Source: a virus (taxonomy: Duplodnaviria; Caudoviricetes). Taken from it: a DNA stretch of 37,081 bases. Shown here piece by piece: positions 405 to 16,984 of this stretch (within the stretch, counting starts at the first letter, position 1; each line of letters starts with the position of its first letter). Where the stretch lies: positions 1-37,081 of the IMG/VR virus record IMGVR_UViG_3300025639_000008; one strand, given 5' to 3'. The notes beneath the pieces were generated by a model, which saw only the letters and a list, made by a program, of their open reading frames with translations, was not told the origin of the DNA and searched no databases. The position numbers and the translations under genes are program-made.

Positions 405-812
405 GTGAACGTAACAACAAAGGGGCAGATCAAGATCCCAAGTGTGAACCAGGAGAAACTGGAGAAACTGCTAGGGTTGATCAGTGAAGTCCAAACGCTC
501 AACAGTGAGATACAACTTCAGACGCTCAAGACATTGCTCTTGACTGCGAAGATGAATCTCAACAGTGAGCAGGATGAGCAGGACTTTAATGGTCGTAAGC
601 TGCCTACAATAAAGAATCTAGCCACCAGTATCAACACTCATTCAGGTGCTGCAACTGGCCGTAACGTCATGTATTTTACTGAAGATGGTAGCATTCGTGG
701 CAAAGCTCTCCTGGTGACAGGCGAGAGGCGAGATAGAAAGATTGAGAAGATAGTCCATGTCACTGATGAGGGTGATGCCTTTATCAACCGACTCCTGGAC
801 TTTATTAAGTAA
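405..812 (+). CDS. Putative MarR-like winged-helix transcriptional regulator (candidate repressor)
   Basis: GTG start after GGAGG. 135 aa with a wHTH-like pattern (TIKNLA...SGAATGRNV...DRKIEKIVHVTDEG). Position directly upstream of the integrase matches MarR-like genes of temperate marine T7-like phages. Confidence 0.6.
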   Translation: MNVTTKGQIKIPSVNQEKLEKLLGLISEVQTLNSEIQLQTLKTLLLTAKMNLNSEQDEQDFNGRKLPTIKNLATSINTHSGAATGRNVMYFTEDGSIRGKALLVTGERRDRKIEKIVHVTDEGDAFINRLLDFIK

Positions 813-839: not shown

Positions 840-1898
840 ATGCCAGTATCAAAGAGAGGAAACGGGTATCAAGCAGTTGTTAATAACAAATACGAACGTT
901 ATCGTAGACAGTTTAATAACGAACATGATGCCGAGATGTGGTGCCTAGAGCTACGTAAAGCGTTGCGTAATGGAGACCCTGTAGGTCATCTCATAGAAGA
1001 TCAGAACGCCTCACCAGCAGCCTCCAGAGCAGCCAAAAGCTACCGCCTGGATAAGGTGCTTGACAACACCTACAAGATGTATTGGGCTGACAAGGCATCA
1101 GCTAAGGATGCTCGTAGAAAGATCAGTGAACTTTTAAATTTCTATGGTCATAACGCAAACGTTAGGGATGTTACCACACTAAGCATGGATGATTTTGTAA
1201 TACAGTGTAAGAGTATGGGTAACAGTGGCGCTACTTGTAATCGTAAGCTAGCTGTCTTGTCAAAAGCTCTTAAGTACGCTGTTGAGCGTGACATCTTGCC
1301 CAAGAAGCCTGTGATACCTTTTGAAACGGAATCGAAAGGGCTGACCGTTTATGTTGAACCACCTCAGGAGAGGAAGTTCATTGAGACATTAACGCATTGG
1401 GGTGATCGCTTTATGTTGGATGCCTACATTATTCTGGTGGACACTGGACTACGCAAGAGTGAGTTCCTGAAGATTCGCAAGAAGCATGTTAAGGAAGGTA
1501 TGCTTGAAATAGGCTACGACTACAAAACTAAGAATGGAGAGCCTCGCACCATAGCCCTCACTGAACGCGCATTGAAGATCCTCAAGCGTAGGGGTGAGAA
1601 GCTCAAGGGCAGTGACTACTTGTTTGATGTGAGTGTCAACACATTGGACAGGCGCTGGCAACGTATACGAGGTGCGCTATCTTTTGGTGACATTAAGATA
1701 CACACCTTACGTCATACTACTGCGTCCCGTTTAGCTCAAAAAGGGGCATCAATGCAGACGATTATGTCGTGGATGGGCCACAAGGACATCAAGACGACAA
1801 TGCGCTACCAGCACTTGTGTCCTGACAATATGATAGGTGCTAAAAAAATACTAGATAAAATGATATTATCTATTGCAGAGCCTGAGGAAGTTGCGTAA
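840..1898 (+). CDS. int: Tyrosine integrase
   Basis: Catalytic motifs DTGLRKSE, KTKNG, HTLRHT, MGHKD and TMRY; N-terminal arm-binding-like segment; RBS GAGGAGG. Confidence 0.95.
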   Translation: MPVSKRGNGYQAVVNNKYERYRRQFNNEHDAEMWCLELRKALRNGDPVGHLIEDQNASPAASRAAKSYRLDKVLDNTYKMYWADKASAKDARRKISELLNFYGHNANVRDVTTLSMDDFVIQCKSMGNSGATCNRKLAVLSKALKYAVERDILPKKPVIPFETESKGLTVYVEPPQERKFIETLTHWGDRFMLDAYIILVDTGLRKSEFLKIRKKHVKEGMLEIGYDYKTKNGEPRTIALTERALKILKRRGEKLKGSDYLFDVSVNTLDRRWQRIRGALSFGDIKIHTLRHTTASRLAQKGASMQTIMSWMGHKDIKTTMRYQHLCPDNMIGAKKILDKMILSIAEPEEVA

Positions 1899-1922
1899 TA
1901 TTCGCTCCGTCCTAAGGGCAAC

Positions 1923-2007
1923 GCGACTGTGGTGAAATTGGTATACACGCCGGATTTAGGTTCCGGTGCCGCAAGGCGTGAGAGTTCGAGTCTCTCCAGT
2001 CGCACCA
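1923..2007 (+). tRNA. tRNA-Leu, anticodon UAG, with encoded CCA
   Basis: Acceptor stem GCGACTG/CAGTCGC plus ACCA; D-loop AATTGGTA; anticodon arm CCGGA-TTTAGGT-TCCGG; long variable arm GCC-GCAA-GGC; T arm GAGAG-TTCGAGT-CTCTC. Confidence 0.97.
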
Positions 2008-2035
2008 TCTTTTTAACAGTATTAAAGATGTTTTA
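2006..2035 (+). terminator. Possible weak terminator after the tRNA
   Basis: CATCTTT (2006-2012) and AAAGATG (2024-2030) inverted repeat followed by TTTTA. The stem is AT-rich. Confidence 0.3.
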
Positions 2036-2053
2036 TCCAGCCCCCACTTGTGG

Positions 2054-2302
2054 TGTGGCGAATGGTGGCGAATGAGTCACCACATGGGTAGGGGAACCCC
2101 AAGAGATCCTAATGAAATCAATAGGTTATCATTAGAATCACTGGATTTAGGTTCCCCCTCCCTTCTATAACGTTATCATTTACGTATACACTGTAAGGCC
2201 TGTAGCCAATAGTGTTGTAGTGGATTACATCCATAACCCTAACGTTATAATTTACGTTATTTGCCACAAGATCTGCATTTTGTGGCGAATCTTGTGGCGA
2301 AT
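2054..2302. other. attP-like phage attachment site (core, arm-type repeats, IHF site)
   Basis: Core GGATTTAGGTTCC (2143-2155) is identical to tRNA positions 1952-1964. GTGGCGAAT repeats at 2055-2063, 2065-2073, 2282-2290 and 2294-2302, plus an inverted variant ATTTGCCACA (2259-2268). Perfect IHF consensus WATCAANNNNTTR = AATCAATAGGTTA (2116-2128). Lies between int and the RNAP gene. Confidence 0.85.
2168..2257. repeat. Two 18-bp direct repeats containing the palindrome TAACGTTA (candidate operator or excisionase sites)
   Basis: TAACGTTATCATTTACGT (2168-2185) and TAACGTTATAATTTACGT (2240-2257), 1 mismatch. A related GTAACGTTAC is at 4844-4853. Confidence 0.7.
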
Positions 2303-2370: not shown

Positions 2371-4833
2371 ATGAATCTATTTGATGAGCAGTTAGAGCTT
2401 GAGAGAGAAATGGTTGACAGTGGTGTCAGCCGATACTGGAGGGATGTGAATAAGCTGAAAGAGAAGAACAATGAGGGGTCAACAGCATACGGTCTACTAC
2501 TGATGAAGAATACAGTAGACAAGGTGGCTGATCATCTGAACAAAGAGTTGTTGAAGGTCATGGGTGGCAAGGCTAGGTCAAAGGCCTCTGCGTACATGTA
2601 TCTGTCCTGCCTTGACATTCATGTCTGCTCATACATTGGTTTACGTATCGTAGTGAACTCACTGAGCAACCAGAAGGCGTCACTAACAAGGACTTGCAAA
2701 GACATAGGCGAGGCCATTCACGATCAGTATGTCATTGATGCTTTTGAGAAGAAGAATAAGATGTGGTACAAGTCAACGAAATCTCACGCAATAAGACGTA
2801 CATGTGATCGACAACATCAGAAGATGGCACTGGTCACAGCAGCGGGTAAGGCTGGTACAGAATACGATCAGTGGGGGAAGCAAGCTCATTACCACATTGG
2901 CTCTAAGGTGGTGGATGCAATTATACAATCAACAGGCATAGTGAAGCTGGTGACTATTCGCATGAAGAATGGCCCTAAGACTAAGCATGTCCTTAGAGCT
3001 GCACCAGAGACCCTAGAGTGGGTCAACAAGGTCAATGAGAATGGAGAAGCTCTTGCACCTGAAGCCTTACCCTTCATCGTACCACCTAAACCCTGGCTGT
3101 CAGTCAACAGGGGAGTAGCCCACTCCCAGCACTTTGTTCAGAAGTTCAAGCTCATCAAGACTCGCAACAACAACTTGATTGAAGAACTATCTGGTGATCC
3201 GAGCCTCAAACCCACCATTGATGCCGTAAATACCCTAATGGCAACACCCTTTAAGATCAATCAAAGAATCATTGAGATTCAAAAGGCTTGCTGGGAGAGT
3301 GGACAGAAGTGGCAGGACATCCCACCTAAGGGAGACTATCCTCTACCACCGTCACCTTTCCCTAACAGACCAACACGAGAACTCAATGAGGATGAGTTAG
3401 TAGTCCTAAGAAAATTCAAGCACCAGCGCGTAGAGATCTACACCAAGAATGCTCAACTGGCATCCAAGCGTTTTGCTTTTGTGAAGTCCCTGAAGACAGC
3501 TACCCGTTTCTCAAAGTATGAGCGTATCTACTTCCCTTGGCAGCTTGACTTCAGAGGTAGAGCATACCCTTGGGTTACATACCTCTCTCCTCAGGGCAGT
3601 AAGAACATCAAGGCCATGCTCCTGTTTGCCAATGGTAAGCCCTTGGGTGACACAGGCGTTAGGTGGTTAGCTATTCACGGATCTAACTGTTGGGGCGAAG
3701 ACAAGGTTAGCTTTGATGATCGGGTAAAGTACATTGACAATATGGAGGAAGAGATCAAGGCCTATGCCAGTGACCCCCTGGAACACAAGGGTTGGCAACA
3801 AGCAGATGATCCTTGGAACTTCTTAGCGTTCTGCTTTGAGTGGGCTGAGTATCTTGAGCAAGGCCCAAGTTTCGTGAGTCATATATCTGTGGCACTTGAC
3901 GGATCGAACAATGGTCTTCAACATTTCTCTGCAATCATGCGAGATCCAGAGGGAAGTAGGGCAACAAACATCATTCCCCAAGAGATACCTGAGGACATCT
4001 ATAAGGATGTTGCTAGGATCGTTCAGAACAAGCTACAAGAAGAGGAAACGGCTCACCCCTATGCACAGCATTGGTTAGACTTCGGTGTCACTAGGAGCCT
4101 CACAAAGCGTCCTACAATGGTGCTTGTCTATGGCGCTACTTTGTTCTCATGTAGAGACTATGTTCAGGAGTATGTGGATGAGCAGGTAGAGGCGGGAGTC
4201 TACAATCCCTTCAGGGATGAAGTCTTCAAAGCAGCTATCATGTATCTGGCTAAGTTGGTCTGGTCATCTATTGGTGACTGTGTGACCAAGGCTAAGGAGT
4301 GTATGTCCTGGATACAATCTGTTGCAAGGTTGGTGGCTAAGGAAAACTTGCCGATGATTTGGACTACACCAAGCGGCTTCAAGGTATTTCAACAGTACCC
4401 TAATTATAAAGTGATGAGGATTCAGACCCACATTGACGGGTCTTTATTACGTCCTAGGGACAAGATACCGAACTACAATAAGATTGACAAACACCGCAAC
4501 GCCAATGGTGCCAGCCCTAATTTTGTGCATTCCATGGACTCATCTGCAATGATGCTCTGCATATTACAAGCAAGAGAAGAGGGTTTAACAGCAAGAGAAG
4601 AGGGTATCACTGACTACTGGATGATACACGACAGCTTTGGCACTCATGCGTGTAATGCAGGGAAGCTCCAGGTGGCAATAAAGACCAGCTTCTACAAAAT
4701 GTACAATGAGAATGATGTGCTGGAACAGTTCCGTAATGCAGCGCTTGAGGTAGTTGATGAAGTCCCCTTACCACCAGCGCGTGGTGACCTGGATCTTTCA
4801 ACTGTTTTAAAGTCTGATTACTTTTTCGCTTAA
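2371..4833 (+). CDS. T7-like single-subunit DNA-directed RNA polymerase
   Basis: Motifs LDFRGRAY, DGSNNGLQHFS (A), RSLTKRPTMVLVYG (B), PNFVHSMD, IHDSFGTH (C) and C-terminal YFFA. Confidence 0.98.
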   Translation: MNLFDEQLELEREMVDSGVSRYWRDVNKLKEKNNEGSTAYGLLLMKNTVDKVADHLNKELLKVMGGKARSKASAYMYLSCLDIHVCSYIGLRIVVNSLSNQKASLTRTCKDIGEAIHDQYVIDAFEKKNKMWYKSTKSHAIRRTCDRQHQKMALVTAAGKAGTEYDQWGKQAHYHIGSKVVDAIIQSTGIVKLVTIRMKNGPKTKHVLRAAPETLEWVNKVNENGEALAPEALPFIVPPKPWLSVNRGVAHSQHFVQKFKLIKTRNNNLIEELSGDPSLKPTIDAVNTLMATPFKINQRIIEIQKACWESGQKWQDIPPKGDYPLPPSPFPNRPTRELNEDELVVLRKFKHQRVEIYTKNAQLASKRFAFVKSLKTATRFSKYERIYFPWQLDFRGRAYPWVTYLSPQGSKNIKAMLLFANGKPLGDTGVRWLAIHGSNCWGEDKVSFDDRVKYIDNMEEEIKAYASDPLEHKGWQQADDPWNFLAFCFEWAEYLEQGPSFVSHISVALDGSNNGLQHFSAIMRDPEGSRATNIIPQEIPEDIYKDVARIVQNKLQEEETAHPYAQHWLDFGVTRSLTKRPTMVLVYGATLFSCRDYVQEYVDEQVEAGVYNPFRDEVFKAAIMYLAKLVWSSIGDCVTKAKECMSWIQSVARLVAKENLPMIWTTPSGFKVFQQYPNYKVMRIQTHIDGSLLRPRDKIPNYNKIDKHRNANGASPNFVHSMDSSAMMLCILQAREEGLTAREEGITDYWMIHDSFGTHACNAGKLQVAIKTSFYKMYNENDVLEQFRNAALEVVDEVPLPPARGDLDLSTVLKSDYFFA

Positions 4834-4857
4834 CCTTATAACTGTAACGTTACAAAT

Positions 4858-8146: not shown

Positions 8147-8879
8147 ATGAATGTACTCGACCTGTTCTCAGGTATCGGGGGGGTTTTCCCTTGGTCTTGA
8201 GAAAGTTGGAATGAAGACTGTAGCGTTCTGTGAGATTGATTCTAATGCTCAGAAGGTGCTTGAAAAACACTGGCCTAATGTCCCTATATTTAATGATGTA
8301 AGGACTTTGACAAAGGCCAGCCTACCTAATGATGAAATTGATGTTATCTGTGGTGGTTTTCCTTGCCAAGACGTTTCAGTTGCTAGCCCTACTAAGGAAG
8401 GCTTAGAGGGTAAGAGATCAGGACTGTGGTCAGAATACCTAAGACTAATCAAGGAGATAGAACCGTCTTATGCAATTATTGAAAATGTCGCAAACCTCAG
8501 ATCTAAAGGACTTACCAGAGTTCTCAAAGATCTCTGGGAGATCGGGTATGACGCAGAATGGCACATTATACCAGCTTCCAGCGTTGGTCTCCCGCACACA
8601 AGGGAACGCATCTGGATTATTACCTACCCCCACCATGCGGGATTACAAGGATGTCTCCTCAAAAGGAGCGAGTCCTTCTGCATCCAACCGGAAAAGCCCT
8701 TGTTTAGTGGTGGTTGGTTATCTGAATGGCTTAACACCTGGATACGAAGCCGAATTGTACCGAGAGGTAATGGGATACCCCGAAGGCTGGCATGTCACGC
8801 AGTAAGTCAATATGGCAATGCCGTAGTACCTCAAATCCCTGAACTAATTGGCAGGGCAATCCTATCCCATAAACCTTAA
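8147..8879 (+). pseudogene. C5-cytosine DNA methyltransferase (large chain), frameshifted by one extra G in a G7 tract
   Basis: ATG 8147 after AAGGA reads MNVLDLFSGIGG (motif I), then goes out of frame at G7 (8177-8183). With G6 it continues FSLGLE...GGFPCQD (IV), ENV (VI), RERIW (VIII) and GNAVVP (X). May be a sequencing error or an OFF allele. Confidence 0.8.
8470..8805 (+). CDS. Overlapping alternative-frame ORF: putative methyltransferase small (beta) chain carrying motif IX
   Basis: 111 aa fully nested in the MTase. It contains LLPTP and REVMGYPEGW (motif IX-like), and the main frame has no clear motif IX. AAGGAG at 8451-8456. Confidence 0.65.
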   Translation: MQLLKMSQTSDLKDLPEFSKISGRSGMTQNGTLYQLPALVSRTQGNASGLLPTPTMRDYKDVSSKGASPSASNRKSPCLVVVGYLNGLTPGYEAELYREVMGYPEGWHVTQ

Positions 8880-10617: not shown

Positions 10618-11143
10618 CCTCAATGTCACTTTTGAAGATGGAGAATGGTGGTATGTAGGGCAAGCAGACGGAGGTCGAAGGCGTGTTACCGGACACAACC
10701 TTAAGAACACTTCAAGAATGTTCGTGAACGGTAAGTACGTCCCTAAGTCACACCCACTACATAAACCAGGTCGTTATAAATCCTTTGATGATGCTGCCTT
10801 CTCAGCTCTCAAGGGGTACAGCAAGACTCCCAAGGGTCACGTTTACCTGATCGTAAACAAGGCTTGGAACGGGTGGGTTAAGGTAGGTAAAGCCATTGAT
10901 GCTAGTGACCGCCTTAACTCATATCAGACTTCCTCACCTCACCGCGATTACCATCTCGTTCATTACATAGAAGTAGATGATCGGGCCAGTAAAGAGCGAC
11001 AGGCTCACAACCTAATCCAAAAGAATGCAGTAGAACGTCTTGGGGAATGGTTCCGTATCCCCCTGGGCTTTGCAGTACAACTTCTCAATTCACTAGCTGG
11101 AGATCAACAGAATGCCGCGTCATCACCGGAAGGAACGCAGTAA
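10589..11143 (+). CDS. T5orf172 / GIY-YIG-superfamily putative nuclease
   Basis: GHVYLI...WVKVGKA...RLNSYQTSSP...E..AH...GEWF. Start uncertain; an in-frame TTG at 10589 overlaps the end of the polymerase gene. Confidence 0.75.
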   Translation: MEAHGPRPTNLNVTFEDGEWWYVGQADGGRRRVTGHNLKNTSRMFVNGKYVPKSHPLHKPGRYKSFDDAAFSALKGYSKTPKGHVYLIVNKAWNGWVKVGKAIDASDRLNSYQTSSPHRDYHLVHYIEVDDRASKERQAHNLIQKNAVERLGEWFRIPLGFAVQLLNSLAGDQQNAASSPEGTQ

Positions 11144-11822
11144 AAACAACAAAGATAAGTTCACTGAAGAACGCCTCCCCCAGCCACTTCTACCTAAAAA
11201 CGATAAGCAAGCCGACTATATAGCAGCCATTATGACTCGCCAACAAACAGTCAGTATGGGATGTGCTGGTACAGGTAAGACTTACATAGCGGGTAGCATA
11301 GCTGCTGATCTACTACGCCTCAACAAGATTGAAAAGATTGTCCTGACCCGTCCTAACGTTGGCGCAGGTAAGTCCTTAGGCTTCTTCAAGGGTTCACTGG
11401 CAGAGAAGATTGAGCCGTGGATCGCACCTTTTACAGAGGTCATAAAGTCTCGCCTAGGGGCATCAGCTTATGAGATCTACATGAAACGGGGTCAGATTGA
11501 AATTGTCCCCTTTGAGGTAATGAGGGGCAGAACATTTAATGATGCCTTTGTGATCCTTGATGAAGCCCAGAACACCACCCCAGAAGAGATCAAGATGTTT
11601 CTCACACGTATAGGCCAAGATACCAAGGTGGTTATCAACGGTGACATCAGTCAATCAGACCTACGTGGTAAGACCTCAGGACTGAAGAAAGTAGTTGAAC
11701 TAGCCCAACGCTTTAACCTACCTATTCCTGTCATTGAGTTCACAGAGAATGACATTGTACGTTCCGACATCTGCGCCATGTGGATTAAGGCATTCAACCG
11801 CGACACAAAAGGAGTGACCTAG
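11112..11822 (+). CDS. phoH: PhoH-family ATPase
   Basis: GCAGTGKT, LTRP, LGFFKG, MRGRTF, ILDEAQN, GDISQSD and DIVRS. Confidence 0.95.
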   Translation: MPRHHRKERSKNNKDKFTEERLPQPLLPKNDKQADYIAAIMTRQQTVSMGCAGTGKTYIAGSIAADLLRLNKIEKIVLTRPNVGAGKSLGFFKGSLAEKIEPWIAPFTEVIKSRLGASAYEIYMKRGQIEIVPFEVMRGRTFNDAFVILDEAQNTTPEEIKMFLTRIGQDTKVVINGDISQSDLRGKTSGLKKVVELAQRFNLPIPVIEFTENDIVRSDICAMWIKAFNRDTKGVT

Positions 11823-13272: not shown

Positions 13273-13516
13273 ATTTTACACACCTACCTGCCAACCCTGC
13301 AAAACCTACGCCCCCCTAGTTAAAGACCTTTGCGACATCAAAGAAATAGACCTTCGTAATATCAATGCTGAAGAAGAACCTGAACTTGCTGCCCGTTATC
13401 GTATTCGCTCAGTCCCTACGCTGGTGGCTGTGGATTCAGAAGGTAGCAACTTAGGCTTCTTAGGGGGAGTTAAAGGCCGTAGAGAACTAACCCAATGGAT
13501 GGATAAATATCTATGA
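13250..13516 (+). CDS. Thioredoxin-like protein
   Basis: CQPC redox motif and IRSVPT cis-Pro loop; overlaps the RNR start. Confidence 0.88.
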   Translation: MSENQILKFYTPTCQPCKTYAPLVKDLCDIKEIDLRNINAEEEPELAARYRIRSVPTLVAVDSEGSNLGFLGGVKGRRELTQWMDKYL

Positions 13517-14443
13517 CCACATCAAATCAAACACTCTCTGACATCACTGTCTTCTCAAAGTACGCTAAGTACGATCCCCAACTACAGCGTAGGGAAACAT
13601 GGAAAGAGCTAGTTAATCGTAACAAGGAAATGCACCAGCGTAGGTTCCCTAAACTCAAGGCAGAGATTGAAGGGGCTTACCGCTTGGTACATGAAAAGCG
13701 TGTACTACCTTCAATGAGAAGTCTCCAGTTCGGTGGGATGCCTATTGAACTGGCACCTAATCGCATCTTCAACTGTGCCTTTATGCCTTGTGATTCTACT
13801 GAGTCCTTCAGTGAAGCTATGTTCCTTCTACTAGGAGGTACAGGCGTAGGTTACAGCGTTCAACGTCACCATGTTGAAAAGTTACCTGATGTAGTAGGGG
13901 TCAAGAAACGTAAAAGACGCTTCCTAATATCGGACAACATTGAAGGCTGGGCAGATGCGGTTAAGGTCTTAATGGAGGCCTACTTTAGAGGTCTCATGGA
14001 TGTTGAGTTTGACTACCGAGACATACGTGTCAAGGGTGCCAAACTAATCACTAGCGGTGGTAAAGCACCTGGCCCACAACCACTCAAGGACTGTATACAT
14101 AACCTCCGTAAGGTTCTTGATGGAGCTATAGGACGTAAGATAACCACCCTTGAGGCCCACGACCTCATGTGCTATATCGCTGACGCTGTTCTTGCGGGTG
14201 GTATTAGACGCGCAGCCCTTATCAGTCTCTTCTCTATGGATGATGAAGATATGTTGGCCTGTAAAGCAGGGAAGTGGTATGAGGAAAACCCACAGCGAGG
14301 CCGAGCTAATAACAGTGCAGTTATCCTACGCCACAAGGTCACTAAACAAGACTTTGATGAGCTTTGGGAACGTGTAGAGTTATCAGGTTCAGGAGAGCCT
14401 GGGGTTTACTTTAGTAATGATAAAGATTGGGGAACAAATCCGT
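13513..14443 (+). CDS. nrdJ: Class II (adenosylcobalamin-dependent) ribonucleotide reductase, exon 1
   Basis: SKYA, RRETW, LPSMR, FNCAF, GGTGVG, GGIRRAALI and GEPG...GTNP. The exon ends at the first base of the Cys codon. Confidence 0.92.
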
Positions 14444-14712
14444 CAATGGCGGCTTAATGGAGTAATCCATTCCGAAGAATTACGTTAATTCAGGGAACAT
14501 CTCTACGAGACAATCCTGAGCGAAGCCTTATGTCGTAAGACATTCGGAACGTGCAACGACTATCCCGCAAGGGAGTAGGGTATAAGCTAATGATACCCGA
14601 AAAGCGTAACATCCTGAAAAAGCGGATGATGATATAGTCTGGACTATGCGGTGACGTATAGAAGTTCATAAGAGAACTGGTGAGAGCTTTGCGACTCTCA
14701 TTGAACACAACG
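14444..14712 (+). ncRNA. Self-splicing group I intron (IA2-like), 269 nt, no ORF
   Basis: 5' exon ends in U and the intron ends in G. P1 CCGU/GCGG has the U.G pair; P10 CAAU/GUUG. Core elements P AATTCAGGGAAC (14487-14498), Q AATCCTGAGC (14512-14521), R GTGCAACGACTA (14551-14562), S ATGATATAGTCT (14629-14640). P7.1 and P7.2 hairpins present. Removal restores NPCCEI in frame. Confidence 0.93.
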
Positions 14713-15632
14713 GTTGTGAAATAGCACTACGCCCCTACCAATTCTGTAATCTTACAGAGATCAACGCTTCTGACATCTCTAGTCAGCAAGACCTCAACGC
14801 TCGCGCTAAAGCCGCAGCCCTCATTGGGACTCTTCAGGCCTCCTATACAGACTTCCACTACTTACGGGAGATATGGCGAGAGACCACAGAAAAAGATGCC
14901 CTCTTGGGTGTAGGCATGACAGGCATAGGTTCTGGGGAGATATTAAAATATGATCTGGAAGAAGCAGCCTCAGTCGTTAAAGAAGAAAATAATAGAGTTT
15001 CTAATATCCTTGGCATTAATCCTGCTGCTCGTACAAACACTGTTAAGCCCTCTGGTACGTCCAGTTGTGTTCTGGGTTCTTCTAGCGGCATCCATGCTTG
15101 GCATAATGACTATTATATTCGCCGTATTCGTTTAGGTAAAAATGAAGCCCTATACGGATACCTGAATGAGTACCACCCAGAACTGGTGGAAGATGAATAC
15201 TTCCGTCCTTCAGAAATGGCTGTCATTGAGATTCCTCAAAAGGCTCCTGACACCTCAATCCTCCGCACCGAATCCCCTACATCACTCCTAGAGCGTGTCC
15301 GTAAGTTCAACATTGAATGGGTTAGAGCTGGTCATCTAAAAGGCCAGAACGCCCATAACGTGAGCTGCACGATCAGCGTTAAGGATGATGAGTGGGAACT
15401 GGTAGGGGAGTGGATGTGGAAGAACCGTAATAACTTCAATGGTATTTCAGTTCTCCCTTATGACGGAGGTACTTATGTACAAGCTCCTTTTGAGGACATC
15501 ACTAAAGAACGTTATGAAATGTTGGAGAAATCCTTAAGCAATATAGATCTAACATTGGTTGAAGAGACTGATGATATGACTGACTTAGCTGGTGAACTTG
15601 CCTGTGCAGGAGGTGCATGTGAAGTTGTATAA
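14713..15632 (+). CDS. nrdJ: Class II ribonucleotide reductase, exon 2 (spliced product 616 aa)
   Basis: CEIALRPYQFCNLTE, LGVGMTG, TVKPSGT, HNVSCT, ISVLP and C-terminal CAGGAC redox pair. Same frame as ORF 14904..15632. Confidence 0.92.
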
Positions 15633-16113: not shown

Positions 16114-16341
16114 ATGAATTATATAGAAGATTTAAAGAATGTATTCACAGATGAGTATTTGGATGGGTTATTAATAACTAGACTAATGGAGCAATACCAC
16201 AATGTCATTGGAGTGAGTAGTACACGCCCAGAAGATACTGCTTACGATAAGGTGTTATTAGATGCTATGAACATAGTGATAAAGCATAACCTAACCAACC
16301 CTGAATTCAGAGAATGGCTGGAGGATACTGATGAAAGCTGA
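16114..16341 (+). CDS. Hypothetical protein
   Basis: Strong GGAGG before ATG 16114; overlaps the thyX start. Confidence 0.6.
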   Translation: MNYIEDLKNVFTDEYLDGLLITRLMEQYHNVIGVSSTRPEDTAYDKVLLDAMNIVIKHNLTNPEFREWLEDTDES

Positions 16342-16984
16342 GTATGTGGACCACATGGGGTCTGACCTAACTGTAGTGAATGCAGCTAGGGTATCCTTTG
16401 ATAAGGAAAGTGCAGAGGTTAGTTACAGTGACCAAAAGCTAATCAATTACCTAGCTAAACACGGTCACTGGACACCATTCAGTCACCCACAGATAACCAT
16501 GCGCTACACAGTACCAATATTTGTTGCTCGTCAGGAGTTCAAGCACATCGTAGGCTTCACTCGTAATGAGGTGAGCCGTAGGTATGTTGATGATACCCCT
16601 GAGTTCTATATGCCAGAGGTGTGGCGTAGTAGGCCTGAGGGCAGTGTGAAGCAGGGTAGTGGTTCAGGTGAAGTGGTTCACATGGGCAGTGATTACAAGT
16701 CGGAAGGTACTGTAGCCAGTAACTATAAGGACTTAATCAACACCTGTAAATACTTCTATGAAGATATGCTCAGGTATGGTGTAGCACCTGAACAAGCACG
16801 TATGGTCTTACCACAGTCTATGTACACCTCGTACTACGTTACTGGTTCTCTGGCTGCCTTTGCTCGGATGGTCAAGCAACGCACTGATGCTCACGCTCAA
16901 GTAGAGATTCAGGAGCTAGCTAAGATTGTGGATAAATTAATTAGACCCCTCTTCCCTGTGAGTTGGTCAACACTTACTGAATAA
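16331..16984 (+). CDS. thyX: Flavin-dependent thymidylate synthase
   Basis: VNAARVSF, GHWTPF, PIFVARQ, NEVSRRY, EQARMVLP and HAQVEI. Confidence 0.93.
   Translation: MKAEYVDHMGSDLTVVNAARVSFDKESAEVSYSDQKLINYLAKHGHWTPFSHPQITMRYTVPIFVARQEFKHIVGFTRNEVSRRYVDDTPEFYMPEVWRSRPEGSVKQGSGSGEVVHMGSDYKSEGTVASNYKDLINTCKYFYEDMLRYGVAPEQARMVLPQSMYTSYYVTGSLAAFARMVKQRTDAHAQVEIQELAKIVDKLIRPLFPVSWSTLTE

Follow-up and report, generated by a model that had tools for sequence, protein, structure and literature searches.

Integration of T7-like phages into a leucine tRNA gene has been described before. In the available part of the preprint by Zhao et al. (bioRxiv 10.1101/410191), pelagiphage HTVC025P integrates in the middle of tRNA-Leu(TAG) without rebuilding it, and its own tRNA-Leu likely substitutes for the broken gene; three further pelagiphages (HTVC019P, HTVC119P and HTVC200P) are described likewise. 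Their attP lies between integrase (int) and RNA polymerase (RNAP) with a core of 11-46 bp, and the same extracts report ocean fragments with int, an intact tRNA-Leu and a 3' end. In the case of the Rhizobium phage vTRX32-1 group (Paadamvirus, Autographiviridae), the accessible text gives the same scheme at tRNA-Leu(TAG) with a 12-bp core; the phage tRNA lacks this core, which was proposed to block super-integration (PMC8631192). The principle was named tRNA-dependent lysogeny and proven in mycobacteriophages, where deletion and plasmid tests showed that the phage tRNA is needed, as far as the available part of that paper goes (PMC10865867). T7-like cyanophages integrate but form no stable lysogens, according to the portion of the source at hand (PMC8776855). 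For a proteobacterial T7-like phage, no knock-out test was found in the open-licence literature.

The preliminary description of the present locus had implied that its disrupt-and-replace scheme was new, and this has to be withdrawn: the scheme is already published for T7-like phages at tRNA-Leu(TAG), and proven and named in mycobacteriophages. It had also suspected a precedent among marine T7-like phages, which HTVC025P at tRNA-Leu(TAG) provides, as judged from the available part of the preprint (bioRxiv 10.1101/410191). The concept is thus not new, and the small difference of our locus is a 13-bp core kept in its own tRNA. What is added here is a marine T7-like phage without close cultured relative that joins a published integration strategy, together with a survey that encounters this strategy repeatedly in temperate T7-like phages and, in four bacterial genomes, as whole prophages.

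The window, i.e. the whole analysed stretch of 37,081 nucleotides, equals a virus record of IMG/VR with a completeness of 87%. It carries a T7-like gene set entirely on the + strand (RNAP, ssDNA-binding protein, primase-helicase, DNA polymerase, capsid and tail), including a T7-type RNA polymerase at 2371..4833 (+ strand, phrog_414). Immediately 5' of this single-subunit RNAP sit int and the likely attP, and the genes for T7-like replication and for the virion share one strand. This gene layout is shared with temperate T7-like phages (Autographiviridae, HTVC019P- and vTRX32-1-like), with a best RNAP identity of 37%. No close cultured relative was found, as integrase identity was at most 33% in full-length matches and RNAP identity at most 37%. 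The phage is present in two sediment runs, the possible source, and in one seawater run from another study, and no RNA run was listed among those containing it; locus L207 is identical to the window across all 4,895 bases compared. Genes for a DNA methyltransferase, a PhoH-like protein and thymidylate synthase (8151-8879, 11112-11822 and 16331-16984) lie amid the replication genes. A ribonucleotide reductase match is divided over two frames, 13513-14457 and 14904-15632, about 450 nt apart, possibly by an intron, an insertion or a split gene. That the window itself could be an integrated prophage was rejected, as the site has int on one side and RNAP on the other, and the IMG/VR record is that of a virus.

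As initially noticed, a complete tRNA-Leu(UAG) lies between int and RNAP. ARAGORN calls tRNA-Leu(tag) at 1923..2007 (+ strand) as the sole tRNA of the window, with cloverleaf fold and CCA end, and this gene is likely the replacement for a host tRNA-Leu(TAG). By eye, a weak -10-like hexamer TAATAT (1896..1901, + strand) was seen 21 nt 5' of the tRNA and may be its promoter; a promoter scan did not call it and gave 5 sites versus 4.6 expected, with no convincing tRNA promoter. A relative with 87% integrase identity (L208) has TAGAAT where the window has TAATAT, and all 12 loci from the nearest marine clade have a perfect TATAAT 14-38 nt 5' of the tRNA, a count taken, like that of the integration host factor (IHF) sites below, from 31 hand-picked loci. 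In the vTRX32-1 group, going by the accessible text, the tRNA is encoded upstream of int, on the strand opposite to it, whereas the window has it downstream on the same strand and with 13 bp of the core kept.

The 13-mer GGATTTAGGTTCC occurs twice, inside the tRNA at 1952-1964 and again at 2143-2155, 135 nt past the tRNA; in 3 of 5000 shuffles, the tRNA and the intergenic DNA had 13 or more consecutive bases in common. This second copy had been described as the anticodon arm of the tRNA. A copy is indeed present, but it is shorter than the whole 5-bp arm and comprises the 7-nt loop with 3 bp of stem on either side. We regard 2139..2155 (+ strand) as the likely attP core, of which 13 bp are shared with the phage tRNA and 15-17 bp with bacterial tRNA-Leu(TAG); the anticodon loop TTTAGGT (2146-2152, + strand) is the predicted overlap region. 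The absence of a tRNA 3' half after the core was confirmed from the sequence, and the 5' flank likewise holds no tRNA 5' half. The attP is therefore without any tRNA half and shares only its core, 13-17 bp, with a host-type tRNA, the host gene being inferred from sampled genomes. Eleven of the 12 bases of the vTRX32-1 core, as given in the available text, equal window 2142-2153. In classical attP sites that restore the tRNA (Boilgate, Omega, and the relatives L032, L040, L107, L035 and L036), the crossover region is also the anticodon loop, and in these five relatives the attP also lies between int and RNAP as in the window; however, half a tRNA is joined to their core, and the window has none.

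Paired repeats had been reported on both sides of the core copy, and they are there. The left pair, (T/G)GTGGCGAAT at 2054..2073 (+ strand), likely represents integrase arm sites, and arm-type repeats on the right (2257..2302, + strand) comprise an inverted copy at 2259-2267 and a direct pair at 2281-2290 and 2293-2302. In the 37 kb, GTGGCGAAT is found exactly four times (2055, 2065, 2282 and 2294), the inverted copy at 2259-2267 having one mismatch; in 0 of 5000 shuffles was any 9-mer present four times. The arm-pair pattern matches 12 viral stretches. An IHF consensus site (2116..2128, + strand) ends 17 nt 5' of the loop. The initial claim of a perfect IHF site stands insofar as 2116-2128 agrees with the IHF consensus motif, but the site is not above chance by itself, since the window has 3 matches where 1.8 are expected, and 3 are also reached in 27 of 100 shuffles; it is credible because its position is conserved in relatives. 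In lambda-type attP sites, paired arm sites flank the core, with an IHF site lying between an arm and the core. The arm pairs on both sides and the IHF site between arm and core appear to follow this layout in the window.

The integrase (840..1898, + strand) is an intact frame of 352 aa that matches PF00589 (E 1e-22) and phrog_1. In an alignment of 16 integrase sequences R205, K231, H288, R291, H314 and Y323 are invariant, presumably the catalytic set of the tyrosine integrases. Pfam gave no arm-binding domain family in it, and the integrase by itself matched no viral contig. The protein encoded just before it (405..812, + strand) is winged-helix-like and a candidate repressor: it is 27% identical (E 4e-9, pairwise) to an annotated transcription regulator of phage MedDCM-OCT-S28-C10, whose gene is upstream of int in that phage, and its Atlas look-alikes (0.90-0.91) are named winged-helix DNA-binding. 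Pfam and PHROG gave no match for this protein, and it did not align with the MarR protein of LUZ100. Two 18-bp repeats with the palindrome TAACGTTA (2168..2247, no strand assigned; palindromes at 2168-2175 and 2240-2247) may be operators or accessory sites. The palindrome occurs three times in the window (also at 4845-4852) versus 0.33 expected, a number reached in 0 of 100 shuffles; all three copies are intergenic, on both sides of RNAP, and one overlaps the best sigma-70-like site 5' of RNAP (2224-2251). These palindromes are candidate operators for the winged-helix protein at 405-812.

A search of bacterial tRNA-Leu(TAG) genes, as had been proposed, gave a longest match of 15-17 bp versus 13 bp to the phage's own tRNA. 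The 15-mer 2141-2155 stands in a tRNA-Leu(TAG) context in 137 of 401 genomes drawn from the phylum to which G004, a bacterial genome with an integrated relative described below, belongs, and the match extends to 17 bp (2139-2155) in 6 of 10 fetched tRNA copies, which were chosen by the tool and not at random. The core thus fits bacterial tRNA over a longer stretch than phage tRNA and behaves as a host-directed core should. The pattern is present in one copy in 128 of the 137 genomes and in 2-4 copies in the other 9, so dependence on a phage-borne gene need not apply in every host. When the intergenic DNA was compared with cultured phages, nothing but other tRNA-Leu genes was found among the best 30 of 302 records.

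Taking these observations together, we consider it highly probable that 2054-2302 is the attP, that the loop core at 2146-2152 recombines with a host tRNA-Leu(TAG) which is left split, and that the phage tRNA at 1923-2007 replaces it. The integrase of the window would act on 2054-2302 together with IHF: by analogy with lambda-type recombination as generally understood, Int would bind at the arms, the DNA would be bent by IHF, and strands would be exchanged with the host gene across the 7-nt loop. The predicted attL consists of the host 5' half, the loop, the right arm and RNAP, and the predicted attR of int, the whole phage tRNA, the left arm, the loop and an orphan host 3' half. At attL, the promoter of the host tRNA would point into RNAP. 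The host would be a proteobacterium with a single such tRNA gene, the phage tRNA would be transcribed in the lysogen, and the lysogen would depend on it. CUA codons need a UAG tRNA, so a host with a single copy would depend on the prophage gene. If this dependence holds, the prophage could be lost by precise excision only, and the int-tRNA-attP cassette could be used as a self-selecting integration vector.

Similarities to the known systems extend to this predicted state. The ocean fragments in the available part of the pelagiphage preprint match the attR predicted for the window, and the attP placement is the same; on the other hand, the integrases of the pelagiphages listed are 31-36% identical to that of the window, and integration was established there by junction sequencing, whereas the window is known from sequence alone. 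The vTRX32-1 integrase is 30% identical. In the actinobacteriophages Fionnbharth, Cluster L, Cain and Gaia, according to the accessible text (PMC10865867), there are, like in the window, a tyrosine integrase, paired arm sites and a tRNA of matching isotype, and cores of 8-17 bp lie in the tRNA gene without rebuilding. These belong to another phage group and host phylum, and the need for the tRNA is experimental there and inferred in the case of the window.

Relatives were compared at two levels. Firstly, in relatives that are about 90% alike (runs X4 and X6), no listed change falls within 2138-2154, the IHF site or the left pair of arm repeats, 26 of the 28 substitutions in X6 being listed; in X8 the IHF site and 2138-2154 are also unchanged. 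The right arm repeats are less conserved, with differences in X6 at 2258, 2281, 2286, 2298-2299 and 2302. In L208 the anticodon stem of the tRNA is altered, the arms and the IHF site are kept, and the contig ends 5' of the core; by its shared indels it looks like the same lineage as X4 and X6. Secondly, 238 integrase loci besides the window's twin were surveyed, taken from the best 80 matches per search. Once 5 duplicates had been removed, 33 of these listed loci showed a tRNA on the same strand at most 300 nt 3' of int. The survey of short cores next to full tRNAs suggested at the outset was positive: among the matches listed, the anticodon loop is repeated in 23 of the 29 loci with at least 180 nt downstream, versus 1.83 expected, the loci being related and not independent events. 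The isoacceptor of the phage tRNA tracks the core loop across TAG, TAA and CAA loci. Of the 11 core-bearing loci in the nearest marine clade (34-41% integrase identity), 8 have an IHF match with 0-1 mismatch whose end is 17 or 27 nt 5' of the loop. Many other T7-like relatives are without a whole tRNA at that place, and some carry a 3' half (L032, L040, L107) or a 5' half (L035, L036), which makes disrupt-and-replace one of several modes in the family.

This conservation bears on the possibility that the 13-bp copy is due to chance or to a decayed duplication without any role. The copy is short, and the IHF match does not reach significance by itself; yet the shuffles, the conservation in relatives and the recurrence in 23 of 29 loci all speak against a chance repeat, which was rejected on these grounds and appears hardly credible. 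Similarly, the crossover could take place within the whole tRNA at 1952-1964, so that a hybrid tRNA would be rebuilt on each side and 2143-2155 would be a leftover. The same 13 bp are indeed found inside the tRNA, and a second loop copy is absent in 6 of the 29 loci (L098, L101, L115, L117, L120, L272), of which L101, L120 and L272 have a whole tRNA without second loop. However, the arm pairs and the IHF site surround 2143-2155 and not the tRNA, the tRNA stem is changed in L208 whereas X4 and X6, apparently of the same lineage, retain the downstream core, and all seven integrated loci described below recombined at the downstream loop. A crossover in the phage tRNA was rejected accordingly and is in our view very improbable.

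The integrated state could be observed in homologous prophages. The order int, whole tRNA, loop and orphan host 3' half is present in 7 of the 23 loci with a repeated loop (L093, L100, L105, L108, L127, L216 and L253), and in 7 of 7 of these attR loci recombination had used the downstream loop. Four attR loci lie in bacterial genomes, namely G001-G004, which come from a Ferrovibrio sp., two Xanthobacter sp. and Rhizobium sp. BK376. In all four, attL shows the host 5' half and the loop, after which the DNA is no longer that of a tRNA; a T7-type RNAP comes directly 3' of attL in G001-G003 and about 2 kb further on in G004. The distance from attL to attR is 41-44 kb on one contig in G001-G003; in G004 they are on separate contigs. 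The sole intact copy found with two search patterns is that of the prophage (CAA in G001 and G003, TAA in G002, TAG in G004), G004 thus having the isoacceptor of the window; one further pattern match in G001 was judged by eye to be chance. An intact host copy may have been missed, since these genomes are metagenome assemblies (G001-G003) or a draft (G004). Identity of the integrases to that of the window is 25-33% in G001-G004 and 25-41% across the integrated examples. A terminator-like hairpin follows the core in two of the four lysogen attL regions (L198, L203, L196, L178). In the right arm of the window, a scan found no terminator on the + strand; the region 2153-2370 folds strongly (z -4.85), partly via the inverted arm repeats.

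For the phage of the window itself, attL/attR junctions were looked for in contigs of runs X1-X6 and X8 (X3 read to 43%), and no loose end at the core was found among those listed. Contigs of X1, X2 and X3 span the core unbroken, X1 and X2 being possibly the source; X4, X6 and X8 contain relatives in attP form, and in X5 no contigs aligned to the site. As contigs lose rare forms, this search does not argue for the absence of junctions. The disrupt-and-replace claim therefore stands on the anatomy and on four prophages with homologous integrases, a split host tRNA and a whole prophage tRNA, whereas neither a junction of the window's own phage or of a close relative nor its host was found. A different reading would be that the attP does split the host tRNA, with integration being rare or transient or the host having spare copies, so that the tRNA serves mainly lytic translation or defence against tRNA cutting and is unneeded for lysogeny. 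T7-like cyanophages without stable lysogens (in the available part of PMC8776855) would fit, as would, weakly, the missing junctions in runs containing the phage, the 9 of 137 genomes with several copies, and, in ten large genes of the phage, a CTA share of 18% among the leucine codons. Against it, there are whole prophages of the integrase family in which the prophage tRNA is the sole intact copy found, the isoacceptor matches the core loop across TAG, TAA and CAA, and the window has a winged-helix candidate repressor, a kind absent from cyanophages in the accessible part of the source. This reading thus seems improbable to us. Regarding the preferred disrupt-and-replace reading, the multi-copy genomes and the cyanophages, as far as that source goes, make dependence of the lysogen likely, not certain.

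A replacement tRNA that keeps the 13-bp core could itself be a fresh attB. In such a case superinfection would stack prophages in tandem, each incoming phage breaking the prior replacement tRNA and bringing the next one. This proposal, combined with disrupt-and-replace at tRNA-Leu as a recurrent mode of temperate T7-like proteobacterial phages that switches between TAG, TAA and CAA, is speculative and as a whole rather doubtful. The 13-bp core is kept in the replacement tRNA of the window and in that of one of the seven integrated relatives (L100), and L208 is without it. In L018, L019, L023 and L024 the loop of the tRNA begins with T and the attP core with C; being mismatched at this one base of the predicted overlap, the tRNA could be protected from the phage's own integrase.

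Some further loci showed particular arrangements. At L098 (5904-6010) there is a tRNA-Leu-like gene with an altered loop, and a normal TAA-type loop copy follows 11 nt later. The site in L216 (890-1210), a TAA locus in attR form from the nearest marine clade with an integrase identity of 41%, has another integrase-like frame after the orphan 3' half, and this suggests a reused island site. Finally, G001 has a short RNAP-like fragment (L206, G001:C7:135861-136166) at a distance of about 2 kb from its tRNA-Leu(TAG) gene, possibly the remnant of a second T7-like prophage in that genome.
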